Part shown: one piece after another, positions 17,732 through 37,400 of the stretch
How the letters are laid out: every line of letters starts with the position of its first letter
How positions within the stretch are numbered: the first letter of the stretch is position 1
Source: a virus
Lineage: Duplodnaviria > Caudoviricetes
DNA length: 64,000 bases
IMG/VR virus record: IMGVR_UViG_3300027917_004314
Strand: one strand, 5' to 3'
The notes under the pieces: model-generated
Seen by the model: the letters and a program-made list of their open reading frames with translations, nothing else
Told to the model about the DNA's origin: nothing
Databases searched by the model: none
Translations under genes and position numbers: made by a program

Positions 17732-20700
17732 ATGGTAACTTTTAAAAGCTTTGATAACATTGTCCTTGACATGGTGCAACAACTTAGGTTAACACAGCCT
17801 AGTTTGGATACCAAACCTGCAACGGTGGCCAGAGATCTTATGATTGATCTGCAGGCACAACAAGTGTCAGAAATCTATGAGGCACTTAGAGAAATTGCCG
17901 CATTACAATCGATTTCTAATGTTACTGGGCAAGACCTCACAAACTATGCATCCAACTATGGTGTTACTAGACAAAGCGGAACGAAAGCAATAGGAACTGT
18001 TGTTTTTACATTCAAAAACATAGACTCAGATATTACCATTTCTGCCGGCACTTTGGTGAGGACAGCAAACGGCCTTCCATTTTCAACTGTTTCCGCAATC
18101 AACATAACCACCTCCCAAGCAAATTCATTGCGCGCCACCGCCACACGACTGCGCGATCGGTTAAATACGGCTGGTATTACAGATGAATTTGCTGTAGAAG
18201 CTTCTGTGGAAGCAAACAGCGCTGGTTCAATCGGCAACATTGCTTCTTATTCTATTACACTTACAAATGCGAGTGATGCTAATAATGTTACAAACTTATC
18301 TTCATTTACTGGCGGTTCAAATTTAGAAAGTGACGCTGCGCTAAGGTCGCGTATTCTCGCAGCATTTGCTGGCACAAACGTAGGTACAGCTGTTGGTTAT
18401 AGAAGTATAGTATTGAATCTTGCTAGTTCTATAGATGCCCTGGTAGTTGAGCCCGGTGATCCATTGATGACAAGGGATGGCACGGTTACTGTTGTAGATT
18501 CTAATGGGACTGTGACTGTATCAGAACCCGGAACAGGAGGTAGGGTTGATATCTATATCATGGGAGAAAACCTGCAATCTGCTACAGATAGCTTCGTCTT
18601 CAATGACTTAAGTGGCAGAGGAGACCCTACGGATTCCAATAATGATTTTATTATGGGTCAAAGCAGCTTGACTGCTGATACTAGTTTAACACTAAATTCT
18701 AGAAGGGTAGCAACCTTGTCTGAGGGTGCAGAGATACCAACACAACCGGTGTCTAATATAGTATCAGTTAGTGGCAGTTCCTCTGGTCCTAATTTTGTAG
18801 AACAATATACTGACTCGGCAGGAAACCTACAAGGGAATTATGCATTAGTTAAAGATACTGGCGCAGCTGGTGGTAGCCCATTTGGTTTAGACAAATTTGT
18901 ATGGACTTCTGATCGAATAGAACTAGAAGGAGAGTCGGCTGTAAAAGGAGAATATAATAGCATTGACGAACTTACTTTTACAGATATATTAAAAGTTGGA
19001 GCTATAGACCAAGAGGTCCAGGTTACCAATGAAAATTCGTCTGTTTCAGCCTCTAACAGAAGTTATATAACTGTCAGCCACACGCCTGTTAAAACTGTAA
19101 CCAGAGTTTTTAATCTAACGACTGGCGAGAGGTATACAATTATCGATCAGAATCCAGATGGTTCTGGTAGCACAAATACTACTGGACGGGTTCAAATTAG
19201 TGGCAGAACACTGCCAACGGCTAGTGATATATTACAGGTTGACTATATTTGGGTTTTTCCACATGACCAATATGTTGACTTCGATAATTTTGACCCAAGA
19301 GATACGCTAGATGAAGCACAAGATTCGGTAGAGTGGGGATTCTCAAACTACATTAGAGACGAAATTACAACGGCGGTGCTAGATTCGTACAATAATCTGA
19401 CAGTCACTACTACATATCCGATTAGTCGTATACTTTCCGTTAATACCTATGAAACGGAAGTGGCTGTAGTAAGTTCTCAGAGCACCATGACAGTGTCAAA
19501 GGCTGTGAGCAACATACACAGCATCACAGATACGACACTATCTGGAAATCCTGAAATTTATAATACAAGCGCAGGCGATGGCAGTTATTCAAATTTGGTA
19601 ATTACTTTGCCAACCGACACCATAGCGGAGTCTGGGGATTCTGCTACTGTGATATATAATTTGGTAGATATTTCAGATGTAGATGGATATGATGTTGCTA
19701 CCGCCTTGAACAATGTTATCACCCTCAATCCTTATACCGTCGTGTCGACTGGGACAAGTGTAAGAGTCAATTATGTAGCAGATTTCCTTAATATAATGCC
19801 AACTACCAACATATCGGCGCTTCCTGTGTCAACTGATGGATTTAATTCTTTTCTTGACGTTGGTGGTTACCAGCCGGTACAGAACACCTATTCGGGTAGT
19901 ACGGTAGTAACAAATCAGAGAAGGTCGCCTAGCAATCTGAGTGTAACTACCTCTAGCATACCGGATAGCGGTACGCTTAGGATTGTCGGTACAACAATTA
20001 ATAAGGTTACAGATGCCGTATTTACTTCGACGTCAACAAATTTGGATTTCTCAGTTCCAATTAGAGTTTCAGAAGGCTTGTCAACTAGCGCCATCATTCC
20101 TAGCACAATATATATAGCCAGGATTGTGTCACTAGAAGAGGTAACATTATCTACTTCAAATGAGGTGCAGACTGTTGTCACAGACTACGATCTTACCAAC
20201 TATGCAATTAAGAATTCTCGATGGGATCGGGCCAATGCTATAGAACAAACCGCTCTATTGGCAACAAGGGCGCTTTTAACATCAACGGAGACTAATACCG
20301 GCAGTCCGATTCGTACAGGTACGATTCTACGTGCTACTTTCTATTATGCCAAACAAAATGATTCAGAGGATTTATTTTACTCGCGAAATGGCACGGCTAT
20401 CACAGATAAAAGATTTGGGGCTGTGTCTTCGATTAGTAGAATAGCCGGCTTCCAAAATTCTAGCGGCACCGTCAGCGGCAGAGTCTTAATAGATTCTTTT
20501 AACCAGCCACTACCCAATATAACATACCTTGTCGATTATGATTATACAGCCCCGAAAGAAAATGAGAGAATTACAATAAATTTCGAATACAATAAATTAA
20601 TTGTAGATGCAACACAAGCTGTAGAAAATGGCCGCCCCATTACTGCCGATGTTCTAAGCAAAGCGGCCACAAAAATAGAGCTGGACGTAGAGGCCGTTAT

Positions 20701-20971
20701 TATTGTATTAGACAGTTTTAGTAACAAAGAAACAACGGTACAACAAGATGTTACAAACAACATTTCTGCTACGCTAAATGCGTCGGCGCTTGGAACAACG
20801 CTAGATAAATCTGACATTTCTGCTAACGCATATAATGTGGCCGGATTGGATAGGATAAGAATCACCAGGTTTAACAAAACTGGTGTTTTAGGAACTGTAC
20901 TCAGTGTAACTGCGCAAAAAAGTGAATATCTGGCGGCCGGAACGGTTACCGTTACTGTGGAGGAACGTTAA
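17732..20971 (+). CDS. Baseplate J-like wedge protein with large internal insertion
   Basis: YGVTRQSGTKAIGTVVFT, GSIGN, GGSNLESDAALRSRI, RVDIYI (N-core) and RPITADV...VAGLDRI...EYLAAGTVTV (C-core) are baseplate-J motifs. Confidence 0.85.
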   Translation: MVTFKSFDNIVLDMVQQLRLTQPSLDTKPATVARDLMIDLQAQQVSEIYEALREIAALQSISNVTGQDLTNYASNYGVTRQSGTKAIGTVVFTFKNIDSDITISAGTLVRTANGLPFSTVSAINITTSQANSLRATATRLRDRLNTAGITDEFAVEASVEANSAGSIGNIASYSITLTNASDANNVTNLSSFTGGSNLESDAALRSRILAAFAGTNVGTAVGYRSIVLNLASSIDALVVEPGDPLMTRDGTVTVVDSNGTVTVSEPGTGGRVDIYIMGENLQSATDSFVFNDLSGRGDPTDSNNDFIMGQSSLTADTSLTLNSRRVATLSEGAEIPTQPVSNIVSVSGSSSGPNFVEQYTDSAGNLQGNYALVKDTGAAGGSPFGLDKFVWTSDRIELEGESAVKGEYNSIDELTFTDILKVGAIDQEVQVTNENSSVSASNRSYITVSHTPVKTVTRVFNLTTGERYTIIDQNPDGSGSTNTTGRVQISGRTLPTASDILQVDYIWVFPHDQYVDFDNFDPRDTLDEAQDSVEWGFSNYIRDEITTAVLDSYNNLTVTTTYPISRILSVNTYETEVAVVSSQSTMTVSKAVSNIHSITDTTLSGNPEIYNTSAGDGSYSNLVITLPTDTIAESGDSATVIYNLVDISDVDGYDVATALNNVITLNPYTVVSTGTSVRVNYVADFLNIMPTTNISALPVSTDGFNSFLDVGGYQPVQNTYSGSTVVTNQRRSPSNLSVTTSSIPDSGTLRIVGTTINKVTDAVFTSTSTNLDFSVPIRVSEGLSTSAIIPSTIYIARIVSLEEVTLSTSNEVQTVVTDYDLTNYAIKNSRWDRANAIEQTALLATRALLTSTETNTGSPIRTGTILRATFYYAKQNDSEDLFYSRNGTAITDKRFGAVSSISRIAGFQNSSGTVSGRVLIDSFNQPLPNITYLVDYDYTAPKENERITINFEYNKLIVDATQAVENGRPITADVLSKAATKIELDVEAVIIVLDSFSNKETTVQQDVTNNISATLNASALGTTLDKSDISANAYNVAGLDRIRITRFNKTGVLGTVLSVTAQKSEYLAAGTVTVTVEER

Positions 20972-23900
20972 TGGCTAATAACCTGCGCATTCAAAGACTG
21001 GCGGTTAAAAGTAGCACTTTATTAGAGTTGTCTTTTAACTACCCTTTGGATTCTGGTATAGGAATTAACAACATAACAATCGAGGGTGCTAGCGGTGGCA
21101 CCAGTGATGCAACCATTTTATCAGTATCTGTATCTACAAACATCTTAAGTATTAGTGTCAGGCCACTTATACCAAGGGCGCATTATAAACTTACTGTGCG
21201 GTCTACGTCTTCTCAAACAGTCACTGGCGTGCATGGGCAACCATTTCTTGAGGATGGTGCCACAAATGTTGTATTTTTTGTTGGACAGCAAGAAGAAAAT
21301 GTTGTTAGAGATGATATTCTTGGAGAGCTTAATAATGGCATTTACAACACTGATGAGGGGACGTTAATTTTTGATACAATCGACGCCGGAGCGAAAGAGA
21401 TTTTAGTTAACGGGCAAATCGCCGGTGAAGTGCGAAGCGCTAATTATGTCTCCATTGAAGTAGCAGACGAAATATTGACGAGAGGAGAAGGCCCATTTGA
21501 CAGGTTTGCCAATGAGAGTGTTTTTCAAGTGTTAAGGGTTGGTTCCACGTCCACCGGAGCATCTGCTGCAGCCTCCATATCTTTTGCCGAATTTCCGTCT
21601 GATCCTGTTAGTTTACAAAGGGTATTGGTTGAAGACGAAGAGGTGTCAAACACATCTAATGATGCGAACAGTTTTGTTGGGTTAGATATTAGTTTGTCAA
21701 AAAGTCCTGTTATTCAGCTAACATCTCTTACTTTAACTAGAGATACAACTACATATACATATGATATTAGCGCCTATAAATATGGTGTAAAAGAAAGTAA
21801 ATATGATACAGATAACTCATATCAAGCTATAGATCTCGATGATAATCAAATTAGATTAAGTAGCGCGGCTGTTGGACCAACATTCCCATTCCCACAAGGC
21901 AGCGATACAATTACTGCATCGTATTACTATAAAAGGGAAGGTAGGATTGTAGAGTCAGACACTGTAGAGGTATACACTCCGGTTGATATTGTAAGGGAAT
22001 CAGTACCCGCTGTATCAGTGGCATTTACACTTGGCAACGCGCCAATCATTAATAGTGCTGGTGACATCCCAACTTTGAACGGCGTTACCTGGCTTGATCC
22101 CGGACAGAATTTTGATCCAACAAAAAAGCATGCTGCCTTTACAACAGAACTAATTTACAACACATCAAACTTACCTAAGGCGCCAGGCGAATACTCAGTA
22201 AACTACTCAACAGGTCAGGTTATAGTCTTTGGAGTAGACGGCAGTGGCGTAGATGGTACAACTGTAACGCCGCCGGTAGCATCTTATAAATATAAAAAAG
22301 TTTTTCAAGAAGGTTTGGATTATAGATTTTTCTCAGACATAAATGAAATAGCATCACTGCCAGGCAGAGACCTTCGAGATGGTCCCGGAACTGTTGCATT
22401 TGAATATGAAGATACGTTTGCAGATGGCTCAGATTTTGAATTTTCTTCCCACATCGAGGTTATTGATGAGAGAGTTAATAACAATTTAATTGATACAATA
22501 GGATTGAAAACTACTTATAGCCCTGTAAGAGAAGTGTTTAGAATATTTAATGAAACAACCGGCGAAATCTATACTACCACAAGGATAAATGGAAATGAGG
22601 TATATTTTTCTTCTGTGAGCCCACCAAACACTGTAGATGTCTCTCGTGAAAGAGTCGAGTTTGATCAAGTAATTCAATCGCAATTGGTAGTTACAGATGA
22701 ACTTACCATAGCTGGTAAAGCATTTGTTGCTTTTAGGATACTATTTACTGATTCAGATATTATGTCCGCATCTGGTAGTTTTATCGGGGCAAGTTTTAAC
22801 AGCTCTTTAACGTTTTCTGACACCACGATATTCGAAGATGAGTTCTTTTATGACCCAAACGACACCGTAAACGAAAATTTAGCGAGACTGCAGAACGTTG
22901 GCGATTATATGGTTAATTATGAGTCTGGTATTGTATATGTAGCTGCCACTTCTGGATCCAGCACAGCTGTTGGTGATGCATCATATCGTCGCGGCAAAAT
23001 TAAAACCAGAAACGACCATATTATCCGTGTCGACGATGTGTATAGAAGCGCAAGTGTGACAGCTGCAAACACCGAAACTATGACTGTTGGTACGGTTAGT
23101 GATACCACGGTAGATATTACAAATCTGTCTCATGTGGGTGAGCGCACTGTAGATGGCGCCACTATTGACGTTTCTAGCACTTCAACTATAACGGTAAGTT
23201 CAGATATATTCAGATTGTCGCATGTCTATCAGGTTACAGATTTGCAAACCAGATGTGATCCGATAGATTTTGCAGAAAGTGCTGTTGTTTCTTCTGGCAC
23301 TCCAACTGTAGTTACATTGGATGAATATGGTGTGGCAATTACGGATGATAATTACGGATCCGGCTTGTTGGTGAAAACTGCCGGGTCTAGAGAATATGTG
23401 GAAGCCGAAAGAATATCAACAATGTTTGCTGCAGGCCTAGCAACATTGGTTTCAGCCATTAGTGTGAATCCTCTAGATGATACGACCAATTACTATTCGC
23501 AAGGCGCCGACGGATACATTGATGCTGTAACTAATAGGATTTATTTGCCGACAGGGTCTGGTATCGCTGGCAGTTTGGTGGAAGCCACATATAAGGTAGC
23601 TTTACGCCCCGGCGCGTCCGTATTGGTAGACTATATTACAGGCGAGATGTTTATAGATTATACGTATACTACTGATGAAATATTAATTAGCTACGAATAT
23701 GGGGATAATGTATTGGATTGGAGTATCTCAGATTCCCTGAGTTCTGGTACTGAATATTATGTGACCTATAGATATGGTGCGCTGAGGCAACCATTGGTGG
23801 ATAATTTTGGGGTTTTAACCAGTCTGGAAGAGCTAGCTACCATACCAGATGCATTAGATAGAGAAACTTATCGTAATGCTGTATCTGGCTCACTCCAATC

Positions 23901-26900
23901 ATTTATTAAAGGGCCAACAATTCCGGCTATAGAATTGTTGGTCGAGGCTTTTACACAGATAACCCCCAACATTACCGAATCTGTTTTCTTAGAGTGGATT
24001 TTGGGCAGAGATTCTCTACACTTAATGGAAATGGAATTATCTGCTGATAGCGACGATGATTTGCCGACCTATGCTCCTGGCAAGTTTGGCAACGGTTTGC
24101 TGCTAAACAAAGCGGGACAAACGGCTACAATTCCAGCTAATTCTAATATAAGTTTCCGCGAGGGTACGTGGGAGGCTTTTGTAACCCCAGAGTGGAAGGG
24201 GATAGATAATGATGCTACTCTGACATTTGATATACTTTTTGATGGACAAGAGCGCCTCAATAATATATTTATCGGAGCAGACGCCGCTAACCCAACAGAG
24301 ATTCCGTTCTCGTTGGATAGCACTGACCCAAGCGTGCTGGGTAGACCCAGCAATTTACATTCAGCAACTGGATATTTCATTTGGTTTGACACGTCAGCAA
24401 GCAAATGGCGCATGCGTAATAGGGCTCCCATATCTGAAAGCCGTTTGTTTTCTGGCAGGATTACAACTTCAGGCGAGTTCCATGACGTAAAAGTTGCTAG
24501 TACTGCAGATGGTTACGATGGATATGACGGCTATGAGATAAATGAAATAAACGATTCTCTAAGATCGACAAACGAAACTATCAGATTTAGTTTTGTCGTA
24601 GACGGATATGATTCACTTAACATGGCGTTTGATGCCTATGACGCGTATAATGGAGATATTGCAGGGTTTGATGGAATAGATTTTACATCGGACGATATAC
24701 ATTATTTCTTTGATACCGGATATTTAGCGAACAGGTGTCGTATGTCATTGTACAAAGATGGCAAGGGGTTTCTTCGTTATAGAGTTTATGACGGCATTGG
24801 CCGCGTCAAAATGTTAAGTCACAACATTAATGATTGGGGTCTTAACGAAACTCACCACATTGCAACGTCATGGAAAATAGGCACTATAGAAATGAAAGAC
24901 GAGTTACACTTATTTGTGGATGGCGAAGAAGTTCCTAATACATATAGATTTAGTGGTTATTTAAGCGTGCCGGGTAGCTCGACACTATATATGGATGAGG
25001 CTTCAGAAATTCTAATTAGCTCTGTATCCAGCCCAACAATAGGTGGCATTGATCTTTCCACCACATCTGGGTCTGATATTGTATCATCTGTTGGTTCGGA
25101 TTTCAGTTCGGTGACGGTTGGTAGCAGATTTTTGATTCTAGATAGTACTGCTGATGGCGTTGCCACACAAACATCGCCGTATGTTTATGTGAGATCCATA
25201 CCGAGCCCAACATCTCTGCAACTGGAGACGGGCCCACCAGGGTCTGGGACACCATACAATGCGGTTTCAACTTTAGACGATGTAAGATTTTCTGTGAACC
25301 CGCTTACTTTAGAAACAGTAAGTGACCCCGAAATAGAAAGAATAAGAGTATTTGAGTTAGACACTGGCGGACTTGAAACAGAGCTTTATTCGCCATCAAC
25401 GCTAACTCCGGATTACGGATTTACAGAAGATGGATACAACGATATAGTTAATATTTATAACGGTTTGGCCGTAGGTTCGAGCGTAGTGTTGAAAACTTAT
25501 GGTCTAAACATCCAACGATGCATCAATTATGCGTATGTTTGGCCAGACAGATTGACAAATTTGCTAAATGTTGTGACACCTCCGCCAACAGCTATTTCTA
25601 AAATTAATGTCACCAATTTAATAACTAGGCGAACATCTGTTGGTTTGGGCACATTCGCTCTGATAGCGACTATAGTGGGTGGACACATAGTACCTGTGTT
25701 GACGTCAAACCTGGAGTTTTGTCAACCATCTAATACCATAACTGGCAGAAGACTTACGGCAACATTGTCTGGGGATAATATTAGTTTCTCTGGACTCAAT
25801 CGGATATTTATTATCGGATCAACGTCAGATGGCTATGGCTTAGAAACTATAACCTTTACATCTACTGGTAAACAAACAACTACCGGTTATTTCACAGAAA
25901 TTACAGATATTATAGCATCATTTACACCTATAGATTCTAGCAGAGATGCCGGAAGCGTTGAAATTCGAGAAGCCGTCCCTATAAATTGGCAAGAAAATGA
26001 TGGCTATTATGCAGAAATACATCTGTCAGTACGGGAGCAGAATGGCATTAACGGCACCGCCACAGTAGGAACTGGCAGGGTAAGAGACGTTTCTGCTAGA
26101 TTTGGGGAAGAAGATATTGGTAAAACTTTCAATATAGATTCGCCTGGTTCTATTGCTGGTGTATACACAGTACAAGATGTCCCACTAGATCCATCTGGCA
26201 CAGTAAAAGACTCAGATACGGTAATTTTGGACACAACGTGGGGGGATGGATATTCTAGCATTCAATGGCGGCTACTTACCACTTCCTATGGTGACAGTGG
26301 TTTTGCCAACGGACTGCTCACTTTTGAGACTGTTGGCACAGGCGGAGATCCATTTTTGCTTAGAAGTTGTTGGTACGAGGTAGACCACCCTGCATTTCTG
26401 ATTATTCCGTGGGATCAAATCCCAGATAAAATATATGTCGGCTCTGACATGAATGGAGAAAACCAGGCAAACGCAGTTATAGACGAGATGCGTATATTAG
26501 ATGAGCTGTCGGTTGACACTGGCCTTGGGGAATCTGCACCAAGTTCCGGAAGGTCCATAACAACAGATTCTTTGGTAGTGGAGGAATTTACGGAAACAAC
26601 TCAAACGCTCGGATTATTCCATTTCAATGATGACGTTACAAATAGCGCTGATTTCTGGTCCAGTTTTTCTGGCTCGTACAGACAAAGCGAAAACAGCGTT
26701 AATAGCAATTTTGAGCAATCTGGGGTGTTTATTTATAATCAGCCACTACAGTATGATAACGCATCCATTTTTAACAATGATGAGGGCACGATTGAATTTT
26801 GGATTAGTCCAATTTTGGACGGGTATAACGACCCGACAATTAGATACTATGTAGATTTGTCACCAGATTTGCAAGCTGCAGCGACGGCAGTTTCGGCGTT

Positions 26901-27783
26901 GATAGTACCACTACCGTCTAGGGCCAGATCAGTAAGCTCTGTAACTATAACGGGCAGTGATACCAACTATTTCACGAATGGTAGCCTATCTGCAGATGGC
27001 AATACTGTCACTCTTGGGCAGCCACTTCCAGGAAATGTCCGTGATGTTACAGTTACATTTGTGCCGATAACCAGTCAGGGAGATAGATTTAGCATTTTTA
27101 AAAATGCAGCTAATTCTTTAATACTACGCGTAATTGCTTCCGGAATCACATATCAGATTACAGTGCCGATATTCTGGAAAAAGAATACGTGGCATAGAGT
27201 TTTCGTGGGTTGGGATCTGAACAATTTAGATAATCAGGATAGACTTATTATGTTGGTAGATGGAATGGAAACCGGGACTGCCCAGTATAGCAGTGACTCT
27301 GTCGTGCTAGGCTCCAGCAAGGTAGGGACTCGGGCTGCTAGAAACATTATGACTGACATTAACCTTGTTGATTCATTTAATACGGTTAATATTGGCGCTG
27401 ATTTTGCGGGTCAATACTCGGCATTGGCAAGAATTGATAATATGAGATTTTCTAGTGAGTTAAGAACAGTTACATATCTGGGTGGTGAAGGACCAGGTCA
27501 ACTACTGGGAAGAGATTTAATATATACAAGTAATACTGATACAGCACAACCAGTTGTTAGTGATGCGCTTACACGATTGTTATTAGATTTTGACACTACG
27601 CAGACCGAAGTAGAAAATCTAATCACTATAAGAAATGCTACTACTGGCATATTCGACTTTTTTGTAGAAGTTATCGATACGTTTAGCCTTGCAGATACGC
27701 AACTGGCGCACGATTTGATTGAAGCACTAATTAATAGGATAAAGCCGGCTCACACCAGAGCTTTTGTGAGCTTTACGAAATAG
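20971..27783 (+). CDS. Giant baseplate wedge (gp7/gpI-like) protein with LamG/ConA-like domains
   Basis: 2270 aa; wedge core (LVDNFG..., RETYRNAV...GPTIPAIE) and terminal INRIKPAHT; LamG signatures GTWEAFVTP/HHIATSW/LFVDG/IDEMRI and GTIEFWISP/WHRVFVGW/LVDG/IDNMRFS. Confidence 0.7.
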   Translation: MANNLRIQRLAVKSSTLLELSFNYPLDSGIGINNITIEGASGGTSDATILSVSVSTNILSISVRPLIPRAHYKLTVRSTSSQTVTGVHGQPFLEDGATNVVFFVGQQEENVVRDDILGELNNGIYNTDEGTLIFDTIDAGAKEILVNGQIAGEVRSANYVSIEVADEILTRGEGPFDRFANESVFQVLRVGSTSTGASAAASISFAEFPSDPVSLQRVLVEDEEVSNTSNDANSFVGLDISLSKSPVIQLTSLTLTRDTTTYTYDISAYKYGVKESKYDTDNSYQAIDLDDNQIRLSSAAVGPTFPFPQGSDTITASYYYKREGRIVESDTVEVYTPVDIVRESVPAVSVAFTLGNAPIINSAGDIPTLNGVTWLDPGQNFDPTKKHAAFTTELIYNTSNLPKAPGEYSVNYSTGQVIVFGVDGSGVDGTTVTPPVASYKYKKVFQEGLDYRFFSDINEIASLPGRDLRDGPGTVAFEYEDTFADGSDFEFSSHIEVIDERVNNNLIDTIGLKTTYSPVREVFRIFNETTGEIYTTTRINGNEVYFSSVSPPNTVDVSRERVEFDQVIQSQLVVTDELTIAGKAFVAFRILFTDSDIMSASGSFIGASFNSSLTFSDTTIFEDEFFYDPNDTVNENLARLQNVGDYMVNYESGIVYVAATSGSSTAVGDASYRRGKIKTRNDHIIRVDDVYRSASVTAANTETMTVGTVSDTTVDITNLSHVGERTVDGATIDVSSTSTITVSSDIFRLSHVYQVTDLQTRCDPIDFAESAVVSSGTPTVVTLDEYGVAITDDNYGSGLLVKTAGSREYVEAERISTMFAAGLATLVSAISVNPLDDTTNYYSQGADGYIDAVTNRIYLPTGSGIAGSLVEATYKVALRPGASVLVDYITGEMFIDYTYTTDEILISYEYGDNVLDWSISDSLSSGTEYYVTYRYGALRQPLVDNFGVLTSLEELATIPDALDRETYRNAVSGSLQSFIKGPTIPAIELLVEAFTQITPNITESVFLEWILGRDSLHLMEMELSADSDDDLPTYAPGKFGNGLLLNKAGQTATIPANSNISFREGTWEAFVTPEWKGIDNDATLTFDILFDGQERLNNIFIGADAANPTEIPFSLDSTDPSVLGRPSNLHSATGYFIWFDTSASKWRMRNRAPISESRLFSGRITTSGEFHDVKVASTADGYDGYDGYEINEINDSLRSTNETIRFSFVVDGYDSLNMAFDAYDAYNGDIAGFDGIDFTSDDIHYFFDTGYLANRCRMSLYKDGKGFLRYRVYDGIGRVKMLSHNINDWGLNETHHIATSWKIGTIEMKDELHLFVDGEEVPNTYRFSGYLSVPGSSTLYMDEASEILISSVSSPTIGGIDLSTTSGSDIVSSVGSDFSSVTVGSRFLILDSTADGVATQTSPYVYVRSIPSPTSLQLETGPPGSGTPYNAVSTLDDVRFSVNPLTLETVSDPEIERIRVFELDTGGLETELYSPSTLTPDYGFTEDGYNDIVNIYNGLAVGSSVVLKTYGLNIQRCINYAYVWPDRLTNLLNVVTPPPTAISKINVTNLITRRTSVGLGTFALIATIVGGHIVPVLTSNLEFCQPSNTITGRRLTATLSGDNISFSGLNRIFIIGSTSDGYGLETITFTSTGKQTTTGYFTEITDIIASFTPIDSSRDAGSVEIREAVPINWQENDGYYAEIHLSVREQNGINGTATVGTGRVRDVSARFGEEDIGKTFNIDSPGSIAGVYTVQDVPLDPSGTVKDSDTVILDTTWGDGYSSIQWRLLTTSYGDSGFANGLLTFETVGTGGDPFLLRSCWYEVDHPAFLIIPWDQIPDKIYVGSDMNGENQANAVIDEMRILDELSVDTGLGESAPSSGRSITTDSLVVEEFTETTQTLGLFHFNDDVTNSADFWSSFSGSYRQSENSVNSNFEQSGVFIYNQPLQYDNASIFNNDEGTIEFWISPILDGYNDPTIRYYVDLSPDLQAAATAVSALIVPLPSRARSVSSVTITGSDTNYFTNGSLSADGNTVTLGQPLPGNVRDVTVTFVPITSQGDRFSIFKNAANSLILRVIASGITYQITVPIFWKKNTWHRVFVGWDLNNLDNQDRLIMLVDGMETGTAQYSSDSVVLGSSKVGTRAARNIMTDINLVDSFNTVNIGADFAGQYSALARIDNMRFSSELRTVTYLGGEGPGQLLGRDLIYTSNTDTAQPVVSDALTRLLLDFDTTQTEVENLITIRNATTGIFDFFVEVIDTFSLADTQLAHDLIEALINRIKPAHTRAFVSFTK

Positions 27784-27796
27784 GAGGAATTTTCTC

Positions 27797-30670
27797 ATGG
27801 CAACCAGACGTCTAGACGTAGATGTTCCACGCGTGAATTGGTTTGATGGATTGAGCGTTACTGAAGATGATATGGATGATGAGCAAAGTAGAAATATTGG
27901 CATAGATGCCGCGACCGTGAATAATTTTTTCGGCAGCGGTGTGCTTAACCATTCTTTAGCTGATACGACATTTTTGGACACCGATTCGCTCAATTCACAG
28001 CAACAGGCGTTACTAGATGCTTATTCATTTGACGGACAAAACGTTTATATAGGTTCATCCCTTACAAGTGTATCCGACGAGGTACAGGGTGTGCAAATTG
28101 CGGTGACGCTTACAGGTGTAGATTTGGATGGAACGGAATCTACAAAAGTGTCTATCATAGGAGATGAATTTGGAGATAACCTTATTCATGATGATTTAAT
28201 ATTCCATGAAAATGGCACTCAAATAACAAGAGGTAGATATAATAACCTGCGCTCCATCATATTTAACGACTTTTCCGGCAATCTGAGGGGTAGCCGCGCC
28301 CCAGCAAGAGAGTCATCAGATGTATATGAAGAGCTGGTCGGAAGGTGTGTAGTTCGCGAAGCTCGTTCACTAGAAGTGTCACCAGATCCTATAATTGCCT
28401 CACAAATGGACCAACCAACCAGGTTTTTTAATAGTTTCTCGCCGGCACAGGTTGGTGACACTGTAAGCTCTATGCTACAGGATGCCATTGGAGCCGACAA
28501 ATCTGTTGCTGACCTTGGTATTGGATTTTTGGCAACAGCCTCTAGATCGTTAGCGCCTAATGATGTGAGCACGATGGTTGGCCAGAAATTTCTGGCTAAT
28601 GGGTCTAACATACAAAAAGTATCTATTTTGCTATCAGTGAAGGAAGATACTACTGTTCTTCCTGCCGATGCCTATAACTGGTCTGGCTCAATTACTATGA
28701 CCATATATGAACTGCAGACTGATGTGTCATGTCCGACTGACCCAGTACCAGATAATGCCGTTGATTTTGATCCAAATCCAACAATAATTACACAACTTTC
28801 ACTGGATAGTGATGACTTAGAGAAACAAGGAGTTGTGCTGACAGATGGATATGATGCATACCAAATTGTTGACTTTGTGTTTACAGGCTCTCCCGTCTCT
28901 GATCCGCTGCGGACAGCAATTGAAACCGACAGATATTATGCTATAGCAGTCCACAGGTCCGGTGACACTAGTGTGGGCACGTTGGTGTTGGCAGAAGTTC
29001 CCCACCAGGTGACACATGGATATATGATAGTATACGACGGAATCCAATGGGTAAATGTGACTGACAGTGATATGTGGTTTGCAATATATGGCGATTATGT
29101 CAAAATGGCGGATGGCATTGGATATGATGAGGGTGTTGGAGTGGAAGTTCCAAAGATTAAAGAAGACGATACCAACACAGAAGTGCCGTATGTAGAGGGG
29201 TTCCATTCATATTATACAGTGACAAGAGATGCATATAATTATGTAATTATGGAGACTCAAAACGAGTTTTCTGACCCCGTGCAAGATCAGAGAACCGGCA
29301 ATAATGTTTACTCTAGAATTACTCCTATGCCGTCGTTTTCGCTTAACAGTTCTTCACAGCTTTCATCCCTTTTGGTGTCAGAACCATCTCCTGTAATGCT
29401 GGCGTGTGCAAGAGATCAGAATGCCAGGGGCAACCCTGCTTCCATCACTGGCACAATGGATTTGATTGGATTAGTAACTAGCAATGAGCTTAATATGTTA
29501 AACCCCGATGCGGATCTGTTAAATAATAATTTGGTGGGCTCTACGATAAAACCGGATAGTGCTGGGTGTACTACAGAATACAGGATTATAAGTGCTACTG
29601 AAGTCGACGATGCTTATGGCGATACAAACGGTGACGGCGAAATAGGCACAAACGATTACACACTTATAGATGATTGGCTGAGCAAATATAATGTTTATTT
29701 AATAACACTGCCGGTTGGTTATCAGAAAATAAGTGCATCAGATGCATATTTCCAAGGTGAAATTGCGGACGGAGAGCTAGATGTGTTGCAACTGCTCAGG
29801 GCTGATGTAAATGACGATGGTTATGTTGGGGCCGATGACTCTGCACTAATACAATCTTTTGTAAATAGAGAGATTTCAACGTTTCCGGCAGGGTCTACAT
29901 TTCCAAGATTGAATATAAAAGTCGAAAGCATACTTGATCCGCTTACTACAAGCGTGAATATCCCAGCTACGTGTCCTGGGTATTCTACTGCGCCATATAG
30001 CGTTTTGACCTGGGAGATAGATTATTTCGCCACATGGATACCAGATTTGTTAGTTGTACAGGACACCAGAAGAGAAATGCCAACCACTTTTACTGATGAT
30101 GTTGCGGCATGTGATGGTGGAAAAAATAATTTCTTTGTGCCGGGAGATCTGGTAATTGGTGAGCTGCAACTTAACCCAGACGGGACACATTATTCTGTAG
30201 ATTTCGAAATGAATCATTTGTCGTTAGATATTCCAATCACGGATTCATATGGTAACGCAACTTTTGTCGATGGCTATACAGGAATACTATTGTTTGACAA
30301 TTTTGTGGCCGAAACTTCAAACGGAAAAACGTTTTCTGGTTTTGATGCAATGAAATACGCTGATGGTACATATGTGCAGTTGACTGATTTTGCAGATGGT
30401 AAAGTTAAAATTGCTCCGTGTATACAATCAACAGCCAACGGCTTTGACGCACCTTTTGGTAGTATAATAGAAGATATTGTCGGAATGTATTATGACCCTG
30501 CTACGTCGCTAATGACTTTATACCTCGATAATCTTTTCGATGATGGTTATGAATCACGTCCAGCGCTTAGTACAAAAATTCTTGTATCGGTATATCTAAA
30601 AAGGGCTGGGTTTAAAAATGACACAAGAACGGTAACTATGGGCCAAATGAGAACATTGCTCGACATATAA
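27797..30670 (+). CDS. Baseplate/tail-fibre attachment protein with dockerin-like Ca2+-binding pair
   Basis: N-terminal RVNWFDG..VTEDDMDDEQ resembles the R.NYF.GQ.L...D...EQ start of contractile-system baseplate/fibre proteins; two dockerin-like repeats internally. Confidence 0.6.
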   Translation: MATRRLDVDVPRVNWFDGLSVTEDDMDDEQSRNIGIDAATVNNFFGSGVLNHSLADTTFLDTDSLNSQQQALLDAYSFDGQNVYIGSSLTSVSDEVQGVQIAVTLTGVDLDGTESTKVSIIGDEFGDNLIHDDLIFHENGTQITRGRYNNLRSIIFNDFSGNLRGSRAPARESSDVYEELVGRCVVREARSLEVSPDPIIASQMDQPTRFFNSFSPAQVGDTVSSMLQDAIGADKSVADLGIGFLATASRSLAPNDVSTMVGQKFLANGSNIQKVSILLSVKEDTTVLPADAYNWSGSITMTIYELQTDVSCPTDPVPDNAVDFDPNPTIITQLSLDSDDLEKQGVVLTDGYDAYQIVDFVFTGSPVSDPLRTAIETDRYYAIAVHRSGDTSVGTLVLAEVPHQVTHGYMIVYDGIQWVNVTDSDMWFAIYGDYVKMADGIGYDEGVGVEVPKIKEDDTNTEVPYVEGFHSYYTVTRDAYNYVIMETQNEFSDPVQDQRTGNNVYSRITPMPSFSLNSSSQLSSLLVSEPSPVMLACARDQNARGNPASITGTMDLIGLVTSNELNMLNPDADLLNNNLVGSTIKPDSAGCTTEYRIISATEVDDAYGDTNGDGEIGTNDYTLIDDWLSKYNVYLITLPVGYQKISASDAYFQGEIADGELDVLQLLRADVNDDGYVGADDSALIQSFVNREISTFPAGSTFPRLNIKVESILDPLTTSVNIPATCPGYSTAPYSVLTWEIDYFATWIPDLLVVQDTRREMPTTFTDDVAACDGGKNNFFVPGDLVIGELQLNPDGTHYSVDFEMNHLSLDIPITDSYGNATFVDGYTGILLFDNFVAETSNGKTFSGFDAMKYADGTYVQLTDFADGKVKIAPCIQSTANGFDAPFGSIIEDIVGMYYDPATSLMTLYLDNLFDDGYESRPALSTKILVSVYLKRAGFKNDTRTVTMGQMRTLLDI
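29612..29863 (+). other. Dockerin type I-like duplicated Ca2+-binding motif
   Basis: AYGDTNGDGEIGTNDYTLI and RADVNDDGYVGADDSALIQSFV fit GD[VL]NxDGx[VI]xxxDxxxh. Confidence 0.7.
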
Positions 30671-30686
30671 TTCGGAGGTTTAAGAG

Positions 30687-32300
30687 ATGGTAACTGCATC
30701 TATAGTAATTTCGCAGGCCGGTAACCCGCCACCTGGTGGTTATGTTAGCGGCAGCAGAACAGACCTAGATACATCTGGGTTGGTAACTTTAACTAATGAG
30801 GATAATACTGGCGTTATATCATGGACATGGAAACTTATATCTATACCTGATGGTTCCTCGGTATCTTTATCTGGCGGCGCCACTTCTACGGCCACTTTTA
30901 CACCAGATGTAGATGGCTCATATTTGATACAACTTGCTGTAAACGGACATATTAAAGCTAGAGCAGTGGGCTCTGTTTTAACGTCTAATAATATTAGACT
31001 TATTGCGCGTGGAGAAACAGATGAGGTCGAAGGTAGCTGGACTCAGGCTGTGAACAACAATTTTGTTTTGTTAGAGGCGCTCGGCGCTGGTGGTGTTGGG
31101 GCACATGCTCTTGGTGGTTCAGTGCATACTGCCGATTCGCTTGCTGACCTTAATTCGAAAATTTCGGATGCTACACTGGATGATTCTAGTAATTCTAGAC
31201 CACCATCTGGCTCTGCGGGAGGACAGTTGGGCGGGACATATCCTAACCCAGACGTGCGTGGTATAAGGGAAACTAGTGGACCAACTTTGTTGACCATTGG
31301 TTCCATTGCAGATGGAGAGGTGCTGACAAGAAGTGGTTCTACTCTCACTAGTACCGCTGGCGGAGGTGCTGGTAACACTCTCGATCAGGCCTATGATGAG
31401 GGCGGCGGCGGAGTAGGCAGATCAATTACTGTAGATTCTGGCCCAGTTTTTATGGATGCTAGTGGTGCTGGAGCACTACAACTTGATGGATATCTTACCA
31501 TAAAAGAAATATCATCGCCAAGCGCATTAGGATCAAGCGGTCTTGTATACTCTAAAGACGTCTCATCAATTTCTGAACTGTTTTATATGGATGACGGTGG
31601 CCAAGAAATACAAATTACTGATAATGGCTCTGTTGTTGGCGGAGGTGCTGGTAATACACTTAATCAAGCTTATGATCAGGGAGGAGCGGGTGCTGGTAGG
31701 TCAATCACAGTGGATGCCGGCCCAGTTTTTATGGATGCTAGTGGTGCTGGAGCATTACAACTTGATGGATATCTTACCATAAAAGAAATATCATCGCCAA
31801 GTGCATTAGGATCAAGCGGTCTTGTATATTCCAAAGACGTCTCATCAATTTCTGAACTGTTTTATATGGATGACGGCGGGCAGGAAATACAAATTACCAG
31901 TAATGGAGCGGTGTCTGGTGGTGGTGGTGGCGGAGACGGATATGGTGACAGATTCTTAATTTTTTCTGATGATACAGAATTTACAGAAACAAGTAGCAGC
32001 CCAGTAACCAAAAAAACTTTTCGTCTGGTGAATGATTCTGATCAAGCTGCTACAACATATCGAATAGTTGTAGGGATTTGGGGAGAGACTGGTGATACCG
32101 CAAGGTGTACGTTTGTAGTAGATAGCACTAGTAATTATGCAGAGACTACTGCGACTTCGGAAACTATTAAGTCAATTGAGGTTACTGCAACTGCCACTGA
32201 AGACGACCCTATGACGGTAAATATTCAGTTATCCAGATCAGTGGGCAGCACAGACGATGTACATATAAAATATACAGATGTTTATGCAATTTTCTCATAA
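30687..32300 (+). CDS. Tail fibre/appendage protein with PKD-like N-domain and duplicated 93-aa module
   Basis: [13 protein letters not shown]...[19 protein letters not shown] (PKD/Ig-like); [11 protein letters not shown] fibre-type motif; two copies of [14 protein letters not shown]...QEIQIT.NG. Confidence 0.65.
31359..31916 (+). repeat. Tandem 279-bp intragenic duplication
   Basis: Units start at 31359 and 31638; cores 31440-31597 and 31719-31876 differ at only about 4 synonymous C/T positions. Confidence 0.9.
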
Positions 32301-33794: not shown

Positions 33795-36700
33795 ATGAAA
33801 ATTAGAGTTCACGGGATGTTAGGAACTTATCACTCATGGTCGCTAACTACACAGGCTTTAGTACGTGCTATGGTAAAGATCGGCGGCCATGAAATATTCC
33901 TAAAATCTACAAACAATCTAGAGAACTTTCCAGAAGATTTGAAAGATTTGTTGCTTCCGGGATATCATGGTGCCCTAGTTCAAGGGGATGCTAATTATAT
34001 TGATGGGCAAGGCAATGAAATAACAATTACGCCGAAAAATAGAGAACCGGAAATCAGAGACTTAAACAGGCCTTATGATTTGGAATTTTGTTATACGATC
34101 CCCTACCAACATCCAAGACGATTTTATCCAGAATCAAGGTGTAGGGCCGTTGTATGGAACTTTGAAAGCTCTATTTTACCACCTGGCTGGCATTATTATT
34201 CCAGAGCAGTCGACTATATGCTTCCATCTAGCCAATTTTCATACGACATATTCGCTCAAAATGGTATACCAGAAGAAAAACTTGTTGTGGTGCCACACGG
34301 TGTAGACACCAACATATTTAATCCTGATATTCCTCCGTTCAAGTTAAAGACTAAGAAACGGGTGAAATTATTACATAATGCTATTCCACATCACAGAAAG
34401 CTACATGAAAGGGTTATTAAAGGATATATCGATACGTTTACTGGCAATGACGATGTATGCTTAGTGCTCAAAACAAAATTTGTGAAGCCACCCAAGGAAA
34501 AGCCGTTTGAAGTAGATGTTAAAGAAATTCTTACCAAAGCTTTGCAGGGAAAAAGAAACCCACCAGAAATCGAAGTAATTAATGACAAATTTATTTCAAA
34601 TATAGGGTCTCTTTATACTGCCTGTGATGCTGTAGTTAGTATGAGTTCCACTGAAGGGTTTTGCCTGTTGCCAGGTACGCCCGTGGATACAATTTATGGC
34701 ACAGAGTCAATAGAAAATTTATCAACAATAGATCAGGTTTATACTCACCTTGGAAACGCAAAATATATTTCATCGGTAATGAGCCGTAATATTGACGAGG
34801 AAATTGTAAAGATGAGACGTCATGGCTGTGATGATTATTTTTGCGGTACGATCAACCATCCTCATTTGGTAGTGAAAAGAAAAAACAAGAAATTTTCTAC
34901 GTTAAAAAAAGACATGAGAGAAGGAAAACTTGAAACACAATGGGTTGGTTTAAAAGACGTGGAAAAAGGAGATTTAGTGGTTATTGCTAAGCCTAAATTA
35001 AATTTTCCGCCCCAAACAACAATAGATTTAAAAGATCATCTGCTTTGGTCAACTTTTGAAGAAAAAAACGGCAAAATTTGGCTGAAAGGAAGTTTTAAAA
35101 AAAGCAGTGGAAATAGTTCTCTGCGCGAAATAGCAAAACGTGCGGGTTGTTCTATTCAACATGCGTCGCAAGTGGTAAATGTGGGCACACATTCTAATAC
35201 CGATTTTAACAAAAATATAATTAAAATAGCAAAAGAGCTTAAATATGTAAAACCACAGCCAATTAAGTTCAATCGGTTTATTAAAATTGACAGTGTATTG
35301 GCCCAATTTTTTGGGTTATATATAGCAGAAGGCTCGGTTTCCGGCCTGAACGCGAAATCTTTTAACATAAATTTGCACGATGATGAAAATTATGGGAAGG
35401 ATTTAGTTAGATCCATATGTAAGCGTTTTGATATGCCGTTTTGTGAAATTAAATATGGAAAAAAATACCAACTTTCTGGGTCAAGTCACATTTTTTCCAT
35501 ACTACTCTCTCGCTTATTTGGTTCTAACGCACTTAACAAAATGATACCGTTTGCTATGTTAAACACTTCTTTTATTAAAGATATTATTCATGGCATATTT
35601 TATGGCGATGGAAGCGCGTCCAGAGGAAAATATTCATTTTCAACGTCTTCTCGCACATTGCGCGACCAAATTTTTCAAGTACTTTTGCACCATGGCATTT
35701 TTTCTAATTTAAGAACAGACAGACGTAGGGAACATGAAAACTACATAATAGAAATAGCTAGCACCTATAACGAAAAATTCAGTGACTTTGCAAATCCAGT
35801 AAAATACACTAAAAAAATAAAATTATTGAATACAAACAAAAACAGTGCAATAATTGAGGGTCGTGACCATTTCCTAGTTCCAGTCAGAGATGTTTATAAA
35901 GAGCACCACAAAGGTACAGTATATAACTTGGAAGTGGAAGATGACTCAACTTTCAATTCCTTAGGTATGAGCACACACAACTGTCTCCCTCTCCTCGAAG
36001 CTCTGGCGTGCGAAAAACTAATAATTGCCCCCAGACACGGCGGCCAACTCGATTTTCTTAACGACGAAAATTCTATACTAGTAGACACAGGTGAAATGCA
36101 GGCTCCCGCAACCATGCAGTATTGGGGTTATATGAAAGGCGCCGTTGTAGGCGATCCAGATATAGAACATTACAAGGAAATGTTAAAACACGTATATGAC
36201 AATCTTGACGAAGAAAAAAATAGAATACGTGAACCGGCTAAGAAAACCGTGAACAAGTTCACCTGGGAAGCTGCCGCGCAAATGATTTTGGATCTCCCAA
36301 TACCCGAAAAAAGTTTTAAGCTTCATAGCAAAAAAAGAGTTCTATATATAGTTCCATATAAGATGGTTGGTGGTGGGGAAGTGTGGATTAGAGAAGCCAT
36401 ATCCAGGTTAGATAGAGCAAAATATGAGCCACATGTGGCCTTGGTTTCGGGCTCGTCGCCCGAATTAGAAAAGCTGTTTGAAGGATTGGGCATAACCATA
36501 GAAGATTTATCTAACAATCTAACAAAAGATGGTGCTTTAAAGTGCTTAATAGAAGCCGGCAACTACGATATTATTCATTTTTATAATAGTGTTGGCGTGT
36601 ATAGAATAATACGAGAAGCGTGTCGTCAAATGGGGTTTCGTGGTCGTGTCGTAGAAACCGTACACAGTGAATTATTGTGGGCTGATTCTATGTCTAAAGT

Positions 36701-37400
36701 GTCCTCACGCGAGCAATTTGTTAGTGTTATTGCGGCTGTATCAAACGCTATGGCACGGAAACTTCTAAGCATGGGCAACAAAAATGTGGTATCTATGCCC
36801 CAACATGTAGATTGGAACAGGTTTCTTAATCTTGAAAGATCTAAAGATATTTTAGAAAAACACAGCATTCCAAAAAATTTTGTTGTAGGTTTTGTTGGCA
36901 GATTGTCCCCAGAAAAAAACATACCGGCTTTACTAGAGTGCGCTAGAATACTTCGCGACGTGTCTTTTGTTGTGATCGGAGACGGGCCTCAAAAAGAGCC
37001 TCTTAGCCAGATAGCCAGAGAGCTAAAGAATGTTTTCTTTATGGGCCGAAGGACAGATTTAGAACGCTGGTACCCAGCATTTGATCTGCTAATGTTGCCT
37101 TCAACAATGGAAGGTATGCCATTAGTGGTATTAGAAGCCATGGCTTCGGGAACACCAGTTGTGGCGTCAGACGTCGGCGCAATGTCGGAAGTTGTTTTAG
37201 ATGGCATTACCGGTAGTTTGGTGTGGAACCCAAAGAATCCGGTTTTATTTGCTAATGTGATTAAATCCTTTAAAACAAATAGCGTCTTGTGGAATAGGTG
37301 CTCTGCTAACGCTAGAATGGTGGCTGCATCTCTCAGAGAAAAATCTAATGGATTTAATATAAATCATCTTTATAGAATGCTTGAAGGAGGGGGCAACTAA
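33795..37400 (+). CDS. Tandem GT4 (GT-B) glycosyltransferase containing an intein
   Basis: Module 1: VVVPHGVD, CLVLKTK, EGF/CLPLLEALAC after splicing. Module 2: VGFVGRLSPEKN, EGMPLVVLEAMASGTPVVASDVG. Confidence 0.9.
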   Translation: MKIRVHGMLGTYHSWSLTTQALVRAMVKIGGHEIFLKSTNNLENFPEDLKDLLLPGYHGALVQGDANYIDGQGNEITITPKNREPEIRDLNRPYDLEFCYTIPYQHPRRFYPESRCRAVVWNFESSILPPGWHYYSRAVDYMLPSSQFSYDIFAQNGIPEEKLVVVPHGVDTNIFNPDIPPFKLKTKKRVKLLHNAIPHHRKLHERVIKGYIDTFTGNDDVCLVLKTKFVKPPKEKPFEVDVKEILTKALQGKRNPPEIEVINDKFISNIGSLYTACDAVVSMSSTEGFCLLPGTPVDTIYGTESIENLSTIDQVYTHLGNAKYISSVMSRNIDEEIVKMRRHGCDDYFCGTINHPHLVVKRKNKKFSTLKKDMREGKLETQWVGLKDVEKGDLVVIAKPKLNFPPQTTIDLKDHLLWSTFEEKNGKIWLKGSFKKSSGNSSLREIAKRAGCSIQHASQVVNVGTHSNTDFNKNIIKIAKELKYVKPQPIKFNRFIKIDSVLAQFFGLYIAEGSVSGLNAKSFNINLHDDENYGKDLVRSICKRFDMPFCEIKYGKKYQLSGSSHIFSILLSRLFGSNALNKMIPFAMLNTSFIKDIIHGIFYGDGSASRGKYSFSTSSRTLRDQIFQVLLHHGIFSNLRTDRRREHENYIIEIASTYNEKFSDFANPVKYTKKIKLLNTNKNSAIIEGRDHFLVPVRDVYKEHHKGTVYNLEVEDDSTFNSLGMSTHNCLPLLEALACEKLIIAPRHGGQLDFLNDENSILVDTGEMQAPATMQYWGYMKGAVVGDPDIEHYKEMLKHVYDNLDEEKNRIREPAKKTVNKFTWEAAAQMILDLPIPEKSFKLHSKKRVLYIVPYKMVGGGEVWIREAISRLDRAKYEPHVALVSGSSPELEKLFEGLGITIEDLSNNLTKDGALKCLIEAGNYDIIHFYNSVGVYRIIREACRQMGFRGRVVETVHSELLWADSMSKVSSREQFVSVIAAVSNAMARKLLSMGNKNVVSMPQHVDWNRFLNLERSKDILEKHSIPKNFVVGFVGRLSPEKNIPALLECARILRDVSFVVIGDGPQKEPLSQIARELKNVFFMGRRTDLERWYPAFDLLMLPSTMEGMPLVVLEAMASGTPVVASDVGAMSEVVLDGITGSLVWNPKNPVLFANVIKSFKTNSVLWNRCSANARMVAASLREKSNGFNINHLYRMLEGGGN
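34662..35981 (+). mobile_element. Intein with LAGLIDADG homing endonuclease (440 aa)
   Basis: Starts CLLPGTPV (block A); GTINHPHLV (block B); FFGLYIAEGS and HGIFYGDGS (LAGLIDADG); VYNLEVEDDSTF...THN followed by +1 Cys. Confidence 0.95.

Follow-up and report, generated by a model that had tools for sequence, protein, structure and literature searches.

The 64,000-nt stretch analyzed here (the window; IMG/VR virus record IMGVR_UViG_3300027917_004314, Caudoviricetes) has all of its genes on the + strand and derives from an uncultured huge contractile-tailed phage. It encodes a giant baseplate-peripheral protein of 2270 amino acids (aa), P0001, that carries a dense cluster of D-[GA]-Y tripeptide units. 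A Baseplate_J / gp6-like gene (17732..20971) directly precedes the P0001 gene, and a sheath-like gene also lies upstream. Metagenomes yielded 245 homologs of P0001, with lengths of 2150-2310 aa and on contigs of up to 468 kb. No cultured-phage relative was matched when the whole protein was compared by tblastn with 50,697 cultured-phage records, and PHROGs holds no family for it. Pfam matches Laminin_G_3 at residues 2022-2110, in a domain referred to as LamG-2; the cluster lies in an earlier domain, LamG-1. The gene, the domain, and the parts of the cluster are as follows.

20971..27783, + strand: giant baseplate-peripheral protein gene (P0001), 2270 aa, bearing the D-[GA]-Y cluster
24058..25020, + strand: LamG-1, first LamG/ConA-like domain (aa 1030-1350), with ~140 extra residues as added strands and loops
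24508..24534, + strand: loop 1, DGY-DGY-DGY (aa 1180-1188), codons GAT GGT TAC / GAT GGA TAT / GAC GGC TAT
24535..24555, + strand: E-I-N-E-I-N-D segment after loop 1, with E1192 97% and D1195 100% conserved
24601..24609, + strand: single DGY (aa 1211-1213), codons GAC GGA TAT, at the end of a beta-strand and the start of loop 2
24631..24648, + strand: loop 2, DAY-DAY (aa 1221-1226), codons GAT GCC TAT / GAC GCG TAT
24667..24714, + strand: core LamG strand F-D-G-I-D-F ... H-Y-F-F-D that closes loop 2

The original prediction of six D-[GA]-Y units within 47 codons, with the codons given above for the DGY triple and for DAY-DAY, was confirmed exactly (residues 1180-1226). The loop 1 units start at residues 1180, 1183, and 1186, and those of the loop 2 pair at 1221 and 1224. 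On the core strand that closes loop 2, D1234 and D1248 are invariant, and H1244 and Y1245 are more than 90% conserved. No competing open reading frame (ORF) covers the cluster on either strand, and Rfam gave no RNA family over 23500-25500. Directly after the DGY triple, E-I-N-E-I-N is encoded by a 9-nt DNA repeat, ATGAAATAA x2.1, at 24533-24551.

P0001 as a whole contains 12 D[GA]Y, against 1.06 expected from its composition. Among 20,000 residue shuffles of the protein, the largest cluster in 47 residues had three units, and the largest D[GA]Y total was seven. DGY is the most over-represented tripeptide of P0001 (10 observed, 0.6 expected).

Purifying selection on D-(G>A>S)-Y

Some 200 homologs of P0001 from metagenomic huge phages, at 36-100% identity, retain D-[G/A/S]-Y units within this pair of loops. 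Their alignment, proposed earlier as a check, showed that unit number varies from 1 to 9 per homolog between two conserved strands while DGY itself is conserved. The units are separated by variable spacers of 0-3 residues, as in DGY-V-DGY-SIT-DGY-FPG-DGY. Across 119 aligned homologs, D1221 is conserved at 92% and Y1223 at 89%, and D1211 at 91% and Y1213 at 70%, with G, A, or S as the middle residue. The loop residues beside the conserved D and Y vary. Near-clade homologs have the loop 1 triple repeat (the array is present in 26-37 of 48 sequences) and DAY/DSY in loop 2. In the far clade, loop 1 is absent, its array mostly deleted, and loop 2 carries 2-7 DGY units. A third clade has no loop cluster and bears DGY at two other places in the same LamG-1 domain, where the Tyr arises on a pre-existing D-G turn. 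Among distant relatives, reached by a profile search of 1.8 billion representatives, some have short DGY-free loops.

Residue choice is strict. In 111 full-length homologs, DGY occurs 742 times against 62.5 expected (11.9x), and DAY is at 3.0x. Close variants are not enriched: DGF is at 0.76x, DGW at 0.37x, DGH at 0.30x, EGY at 0.26x, and the permuted DYG at 0.30x, while NGY (0.64x), SGY, and TGY all lie at 0.64-0.75x. Phe and Tyr swap freely in strands elsewhere in the same 119-sequence alignment, and this exchange, together with the ratios above, indicates that the Tyr hydroxyl and the short Asp carboxylate are specifically required. The earlier claim that the tripeptide is under selection, which free substitution of its Tyr would have contradicted, is thus upheld by the conservation of D1221 and Y1223 and by the depletion of DGF and DGW next to the excess of DGY. 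Together these data show that purifying selection acts on D-(G>A>S)-Y as such and not on a DNA repeat or an exact loop geometry.

The loop cluster of P0001 is the main hot spot of this motif in its protein family. Between 46 and 49% of the 742 DGY fall within aa 1150-1249, ~4% of the length, and in homologs that have just three DGY, two or three of them lie there. Other DGY sites are fixed within a clade (1487 in 48/48 and 847 in 42/48 near-clade sequences) and replaced between clades. The number of loop units is anticorrelated with the DGY count of the remaining protein sequence (rho -0.42, p 0.0008, a test that ignores phylogeny and that a few clades may drive), as expected if dose, not position, is selected.

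Copy number differs between relatives, which is what neutral low-complexity growth by replication slippage, with no selected function, would also give. Codon use makes this origin highly improbable. DNA was available for 79 related IMG/VR loci. We compared 170 DGY units in 61 distinct homologous genes. The units use both Asp codons (GAT/GAC), all four Gly codons, and both Tyr codons (TAT/TAC). Within a gene, 12.1% of unit pairs were DNA-identical, against 12.5% expected from pooled codon use, so that units are no more alike than random codon draws. Tandem neighbors were identical in 4 of 23 cases, and orthologous DGY x3 arrays differ by synonymous codons. Tandem Repeats Finder, at its lowest threshold, found no DNA repeat over the DGY units. 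The strict residue specificity of the 11.9x enrichment and the ~90% conservation of D and Y beside varying loop residues also argue against slippage. The original proposal that the repeat is kept as peptide and is not a recent slippage product therefore holds.

Several known motifs were compared with the array and set aside. Collagen-like Gly-X-Y does not fit, as there are just three G-Y-D triplets and homolog spacers of 1-3 residues break the register. The EF-hand, RTX, and thrombospondin Ca2+ motifs, GFP-type X-Y-G chromophores, and splicease X-Y-G sites differ in residue order or spacing, and DYG is depleted (0.3x).

Fold and predicted exposure of the loops

An AlphaFold2 model of aa 1030-1350, made with the 119-sequence alignment, had a predicted local distance difference test score (pLDDT) of 88.3 and a predicted template modeling score (pTM) of 0.83, and it adopts a LamG/ConA jelly roll. 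VIA-align matched it at Z 10.5-8 and a root-mean-square deviation of 2.4-3 over 107-129 aligned residues (~120 of 321) to domain 4 of AbnA, a CBM-like arabinanase domain with arabinotriose, and to the LG domains of laminin, neurexin (LNS), and agrin. Further matches were CBM40, pentraxins, clostridial HCN domains, and a CBA120 tailspike domain. Foldseek against PDB gave nothing at E <= 0.001 and just short local LamG matches. By hhalign, the C-terminal core of LamG-1 matched LamG-2, the Pfam-positive domain of P0001, at 94%. Model, VIA-align, and hhalign thus all place LamG-1 among two-sheet LamG-type jelly rolls. LamG-1 exceeds LamG-2 by ~90 residues, in the region with the D-[GA]-Y units, so that it is fair to speak of an insertion in LamG-1.

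In the model, the DGY triple (model residues 151-159) is coil in a block of pLDDT ~75, DAY-DAY (192-197) is coil in a block of pLDDT ~64, and strand E174-181 stops just before DGY 1211. In a far-clade homolog with a 7-unit loop (L039), modeled to look for regular structure in the array, residues 186-206 are coil with pLDDT <50, between flanks >90. In another homolog, P0104 (2717 aa), loop 2 is interrupted by an insertion of 506 aa, and DGY units remain on either side of it. The inserted part (residues about 1190-1700) adds a further two LamG-like domains (Pfam, precomputed: PF13385, PF02210, and PF07953). Because P0104 tolerates such an insertion there, loop 2 is likely to lie on the surface. 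The coil state, the lowered pLDDT, the ~120 of 321 residues aligned to LamG folds, and the 506-aa insertion all agree with the original placement of the units in a LamG-1 insertion that probably forms an exposed loop. Both loops are predicted to be flexible, insertion-tolerant, and surface-displayed.

This fold invites a reading in which the loops bind a ligand directly: an Asp/Tyr/Gly-rich rim of a lectin-like LamG would contact a host glycan or a cation, with copy number tuning avidity and spacers tuning specificity, much as antibody complementarity-determining region (CDR) loops do. The best fold matches are carbohydrate- or ligand-binding modules (Z 8-10.5), and P0001, encoded next to gp6, is placed at the baseplate periphery. 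Indels are more frequent in the loops than anywhere else in LamG-1, and the invariant acidic and His residues E1192, D1195, D1234, H1244, and D1248 flank both loops. Tyr and Asp are typical sugar-contact residues. Known LamG, LNS, and ConA domains (laminin LG4-5, neurexin LNS, CBM40, pentraxins) share the same jelly roll, at VIA Z 8-10.5, and bind ligands and Ca2+ at loops on one rim of the sandwich. LamG-1 differs from them in its ~140 extra residues and in its variable loops built of a repeated tripeptide. Antibody CDR-H3 and minimal-alphabet synthetic binders use variable-length flexible beta-sandwich loops rich in Tyr, Asp, Gly, and Ser. The likeness to CDR-H3 lies in such loops being dominated by Tyr, Asp, Gly, Ala, and Ser, and the difference in that CDR-H3 has no fixed ordered tripeptide, whereas the D-small-Y order here is strict across deep divergence. 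A paratope should diverge among phages of sediment, soil, freshwater, and wetland, yet one ordered tripeptide persists in homologs with as little as 36% identity. Several unrelated outer proteins are likewise rich in the motif (see below), clade 3 lacks the loop cluster and has DGY elsewhere in the domain, some lineages have this protein with short loops devoid of DGY, and the arrays are predicted to be disordered. Direct ligand binding is therefore, in our judgment, rather doubtful, though it is the chief alternative to the reading favored below.

Outer virion proteins and the adjoining glycan island

Two outer tail proteins encoded 3' of P0001, and a glycosyltransferase (GT) gene that opens a glycan island beyond them, complete the set of features considered here.

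27797..32300, + strand: two outer tail proteins (957 aa and 537 aa) 3' of P0001, with excess DGY and of unknown family
33795..37400, + strand: GT4 glycosyltransferase with an intein, 1201 aa, first gene of the island (Pfam Glycos_transf_1, 1.5e-38)

DGY marks other outer baseplate and fiber proteins as well as P0001. In the window, the 957-aa protein has four DGY against 0.33 expected and the 537-aa protein three against 0.18, and there is almost no DGY in the sheath, tube, and inner baseplate (~5000 aa). When related loci were pooled, DGY was at 11.8x expectation in the giant protein, 26.5x in homologs of the 957-aa protein (390 against 14.7 expected, 68 loci), 6.4x in gp6-like homologs, and 11.7x in the two ORFs upstream of gp6-like. 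The GT4 enzymes of these loci contained no DGY, against 2.8 expected.

Residues 607-689 of the 957-aa protein (29612-29863) give a weak dockerin type I match (E 0.0065, under the Pfam cut-off), within which its DGY 674 falls. The 537-aa protein (30687-32300) has two identical ~30-residue stretches, around DGY 267 and DGY 360, and this sequence likeness points to a probable internal domain duplication.

Isolated DGY sites in P0001 and its neighbors mostly follow hydrophobic, strand-like residues, and DGY 1211 stands exactly at a strand end. Such placement would suit a purely structural motif, that is, a D-G tight turn after a strand whose Tyr hydroxyl hydrogen-bonds back (a tyrosine corner or Asx turn), or Ca2+ chelation. 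Their role would be to stiffen the loops or to provide contacts between baseplate subunits, with no external reader. The fixation of positions within a clade (1487 and 847 in the near clade), the appearance of the clade 3 Tyr on a pre-existing D-G turn, and the need for a hydroxyl, which also fits a tyrosine-corner hydrogen bond, all favor this explanation. It is nevertheless unlikely: Asx turns can equally be formed by Asn, Ser, or Thr, yet no excess of NGY, SGY, or TGY is seen; tandem and near-tandem arrays of 3-7 units with variable spacers are low-confidence coil in the models and not regular structure; and sites turn over between clades, with whole lineages lacking the motif.

The glycan island lies directly 3' of the tail genes and spans ~30 kb (window 33795-64000). 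Besides the GT4 with its intein, its glycosyltransferases include at least six GT2 and GT47-like and GT29-like genes. The island also encodes NeuB, a cytidylyltransferase, two DegT aminotransferases, a GDP-mannose dehydratase, epimerases, methyltransferases, one radical SAM/SPASM enzyme, and one B12-radical SAM enzyme. The island ORFs scanned gave no match to flippase, polymerase, or initiating phosphoglycosyl transferase families; this lack of export-type sugar genes is in keeping with a protein target in the cytoplasm. Of the 79 loci, 55 (nearly all of those with enough DNA) have a GT4 homolog 3-5 kb 3' of the giant gene. The GT4 at 33795..37400 is a putative candidate reader of the motif. 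Its intein carries a LAGLIDADG homing endonuclease (Hint, Intein_splicing, and LAGLIDADG_3 matches, residues 290-730). In all five near-complete relatives (5/5), almost all GT matches cluster beside the tail module.

We compared the genes that follow the tail genes with the DGY level of the structural proteins, expressed relative to expectation, in the following more distant relatives.

L084: three GT genes after the tail genes; structural-protein DGY 24x
L085: GT4 after the tail genes; structural-protein DGY 18x
L090: three GT genes after the tail genes; structural-protein DGY 5.3x
L089: no GT within 10 kb; structural-protein DGY 5.1x
L080: one GT gene after the tail genes; structural-protein DGY 3.1x
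L086: two or more GT genes after the tail genes; structural-protein DGY 2.7x
L081/L082: no recognizable GT after the tail genes; structural-protein DGY 1.3x
L083: no GT seen in 6 kb after the tail genes; structural-protein DGY 0.9x

GT clusters adjoin the tail genes in all DGY-rich genomes checked. L081/L082 and L083 have the same tail-gene order, a DGY excess in no structural protein, and no recognizable GT before the next module; these two lineages make up the DGY-null control set and are natural negative controls for DGY. A scan of viral contigs seeded with a DGY-null homolog returned one relative, which was DGY-rich. In an outer clade (L080, L081, L084, and L090), the small sugar module contains a ~330-aa coiled-coil protein and an NAD-dependent epimerase/dehydratase, and a TubZ-like tubulin and a UvsW-like helicase are encoded downstream of it.

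The two radical SAM enzymes and several methyltransferases of the island raise the question of tyrosine sulfation or another non-glycan modification of D-x-Y by an island enzyme. Acidic residues beside Tyr are the usual context of tyrosine sulfation. No gene for synthesis of 3'-phosphoadenosine-5'-phosphosulfate was seen in the window, however, and in the 79 related loci the 10 kb next to the tail genes contains none of these enzyme genes, so we regard such a modification as very unlikely. A sulfotransferase identity for the ORF at 43220..44653 (477 aa) gained no support from profile search, as it matched no Pfam family even at E <= 5; other island ORFs match families other than sulfotransferase. 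A divergent enzyme or one of the host might still serve. A three-residue cyclophane made by a radical SAM enzyme (triceptide) was likewise rejected, since it needs a C-beta two residues after the aromatic residue and that position is Gly here (Y-D-G). In related loci, the radical SAM/SPASM gene lies away from the tail genes.

Candidate role of the motif and known systems

Our favored reading, held tentatively, is that the units are a tag read in trans, most plausibly a tyrosine-glycosylation array, with the modification itself putative. A trans-acting reader is favored by the strict chemistry of the motif combined with free spacing and number on several unrelated outer proteins; by its absence from enzymes and inner parts and its loss in whole lineages; and by the conserved neighborhood of soluble glycosyltransferases without export genes. 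As in sequon arrays, the motif is short and ordered, with a hydroxyl-bearing acceptor and strict residue choice, and its flexible sites, whose exposure is predicted, turn over while density is kept. Under the proposed mechanism, D-(G/A/S)-Y units would be recognized in trans by a phage factor, most likely a soluble glycosyltransferase whose gene adjoins the tail genes on their 3' side. The recognition context would consist of Asp at -2 with a small residue at -1. The enzyme would act on the Tyr hydroxyl in the cytoplasm, either ahead of assembly or in the course of it. The loop pair may thereby become a dense glycan-bearing patch at the baseplate periphery.

Several points weigh against a glycosylation array. 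We know of no tyrosine-directed glycosyltransferase from phages, and P0001 contains ~10% each of Ser and Thr, to which O-glycans are usually attached. The closest structural neighbors of LamG-1 are ligand- or glycan-binding modules, so the loops could bind instead, and isolated DGY sites usually follow a hydrophobic strand, like a strand-turn motif. The predicted exposure rests on models, indel patterns, and one domain insertion. No single GT ortholog is common to all DGY-rich genomes, and NeuB is found in none of the five near-complete relatives (0/5); island content therefore varies while its position is kept. Lineages that do bear GT genes (L080, L086, and L090, with one to three) show DGY at only 2.7-5.3x, and L089, which has none within 10 kb, reaches 5.1x. 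In this small sample, DGY excess is only loosely tied to GT genes.

Known short glycosylation motifs provide the nearest formal parallel. The O-glycosylation motif of Bacteroidota has the form D-(S/T)-(A/I/L/V/M/T). Like N-x-S/T, it is a very short ordered motif, scattered or clustered on exposed parts of unrelated surface proteins. It shares with D-G-Y an Asp and a hydroxyl-bearing acceptor, and a position that turns over while density is kept. For Bacteroidota O-glycosylation, PMC8698959 cites a motif of three amino acids. The putative acceptor here differs in being Tyr with Asp at -2. Known sequon systems also transfer outside the cytoplasm, by enzymes of the oligosaccharyltransferase type, whereas modification of a phage virion protein would occur inside it.

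Mycobacteriophage virions are glycosylated by phage-encoded glycosyltransferases (Freeman et al. 2023, as summarized in PMC12619734). There, soluble phage glycosyltransferases are encoded beside structural genes and their targets are outward-facing virion proteins, as proposed here. The glycans reported for these phages sit on capsid and tail-tube subunits, at the C-termini, and a Tyr tripeptide plays no part (PMC12619734). In contrast, the candidate D-G/A/S-Y sites lie in internal loops of baseplate proteins, and their glycan is putative. Tyr O-glycosylation is known from the S-layer proteins of Paenibacillus alvei (SpaA) and Thermoanaerobacter, a precedent for glycans on Tyr hydroxyls at multiple sites of a prokaryotic surface array protein (PMC2943079). 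The S-layer systems differ in modifying a few specific Tyr by means of a membrane O-oligosaccharyltransferase and a lipid-linked glycan, and no DGY-type motif or tandem array has been described for them. A full-text literature search for the phrase "DGY motif" found no paper, and a search combining tyrosine O-glycosylation with bacteriophage returned just S-layer and unrelated papers. None of these closest known systems (mycobacteriophage glycosylation, three-residue sequons, and S-layer glycosylation) uses D-G-Y.

A broader proposal, possible though doubtful, is that D-G-Y is an undescribed tyrosine-directed sequon with which huge phages glycosylate their outward virion proteins in the cytoplasm, using their own variable sugar islands. 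The loop pair would then be a mucin-like multi-site glycan patch on the rim of the baseplate that could shield it or make first host contact.

The array is a real, specific feature, and its mechanism remains a proposal. If the units are modification sites, they would constitute the first viral sequon based on tyrosine and would explain why large, fast-changing sugar islands are kept beside the tail genes of huge phages. In that case LamG-1, with ~320 residues, a confident model, and six sites in a 47-residue stretch, would offer a compact substrate in the search for the enzyme. If ligand binding is the role of the loops instead, they show that repeats of a single tripeptide can make up a receptor-binding surface. 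LamG-1 makes the wider DGY question testable on one small, well-folded domain. Either way, DGY is a simple sequence marker of outward-facing proteins in an uncultured group of phages whose structural genes are mostly unannotated.

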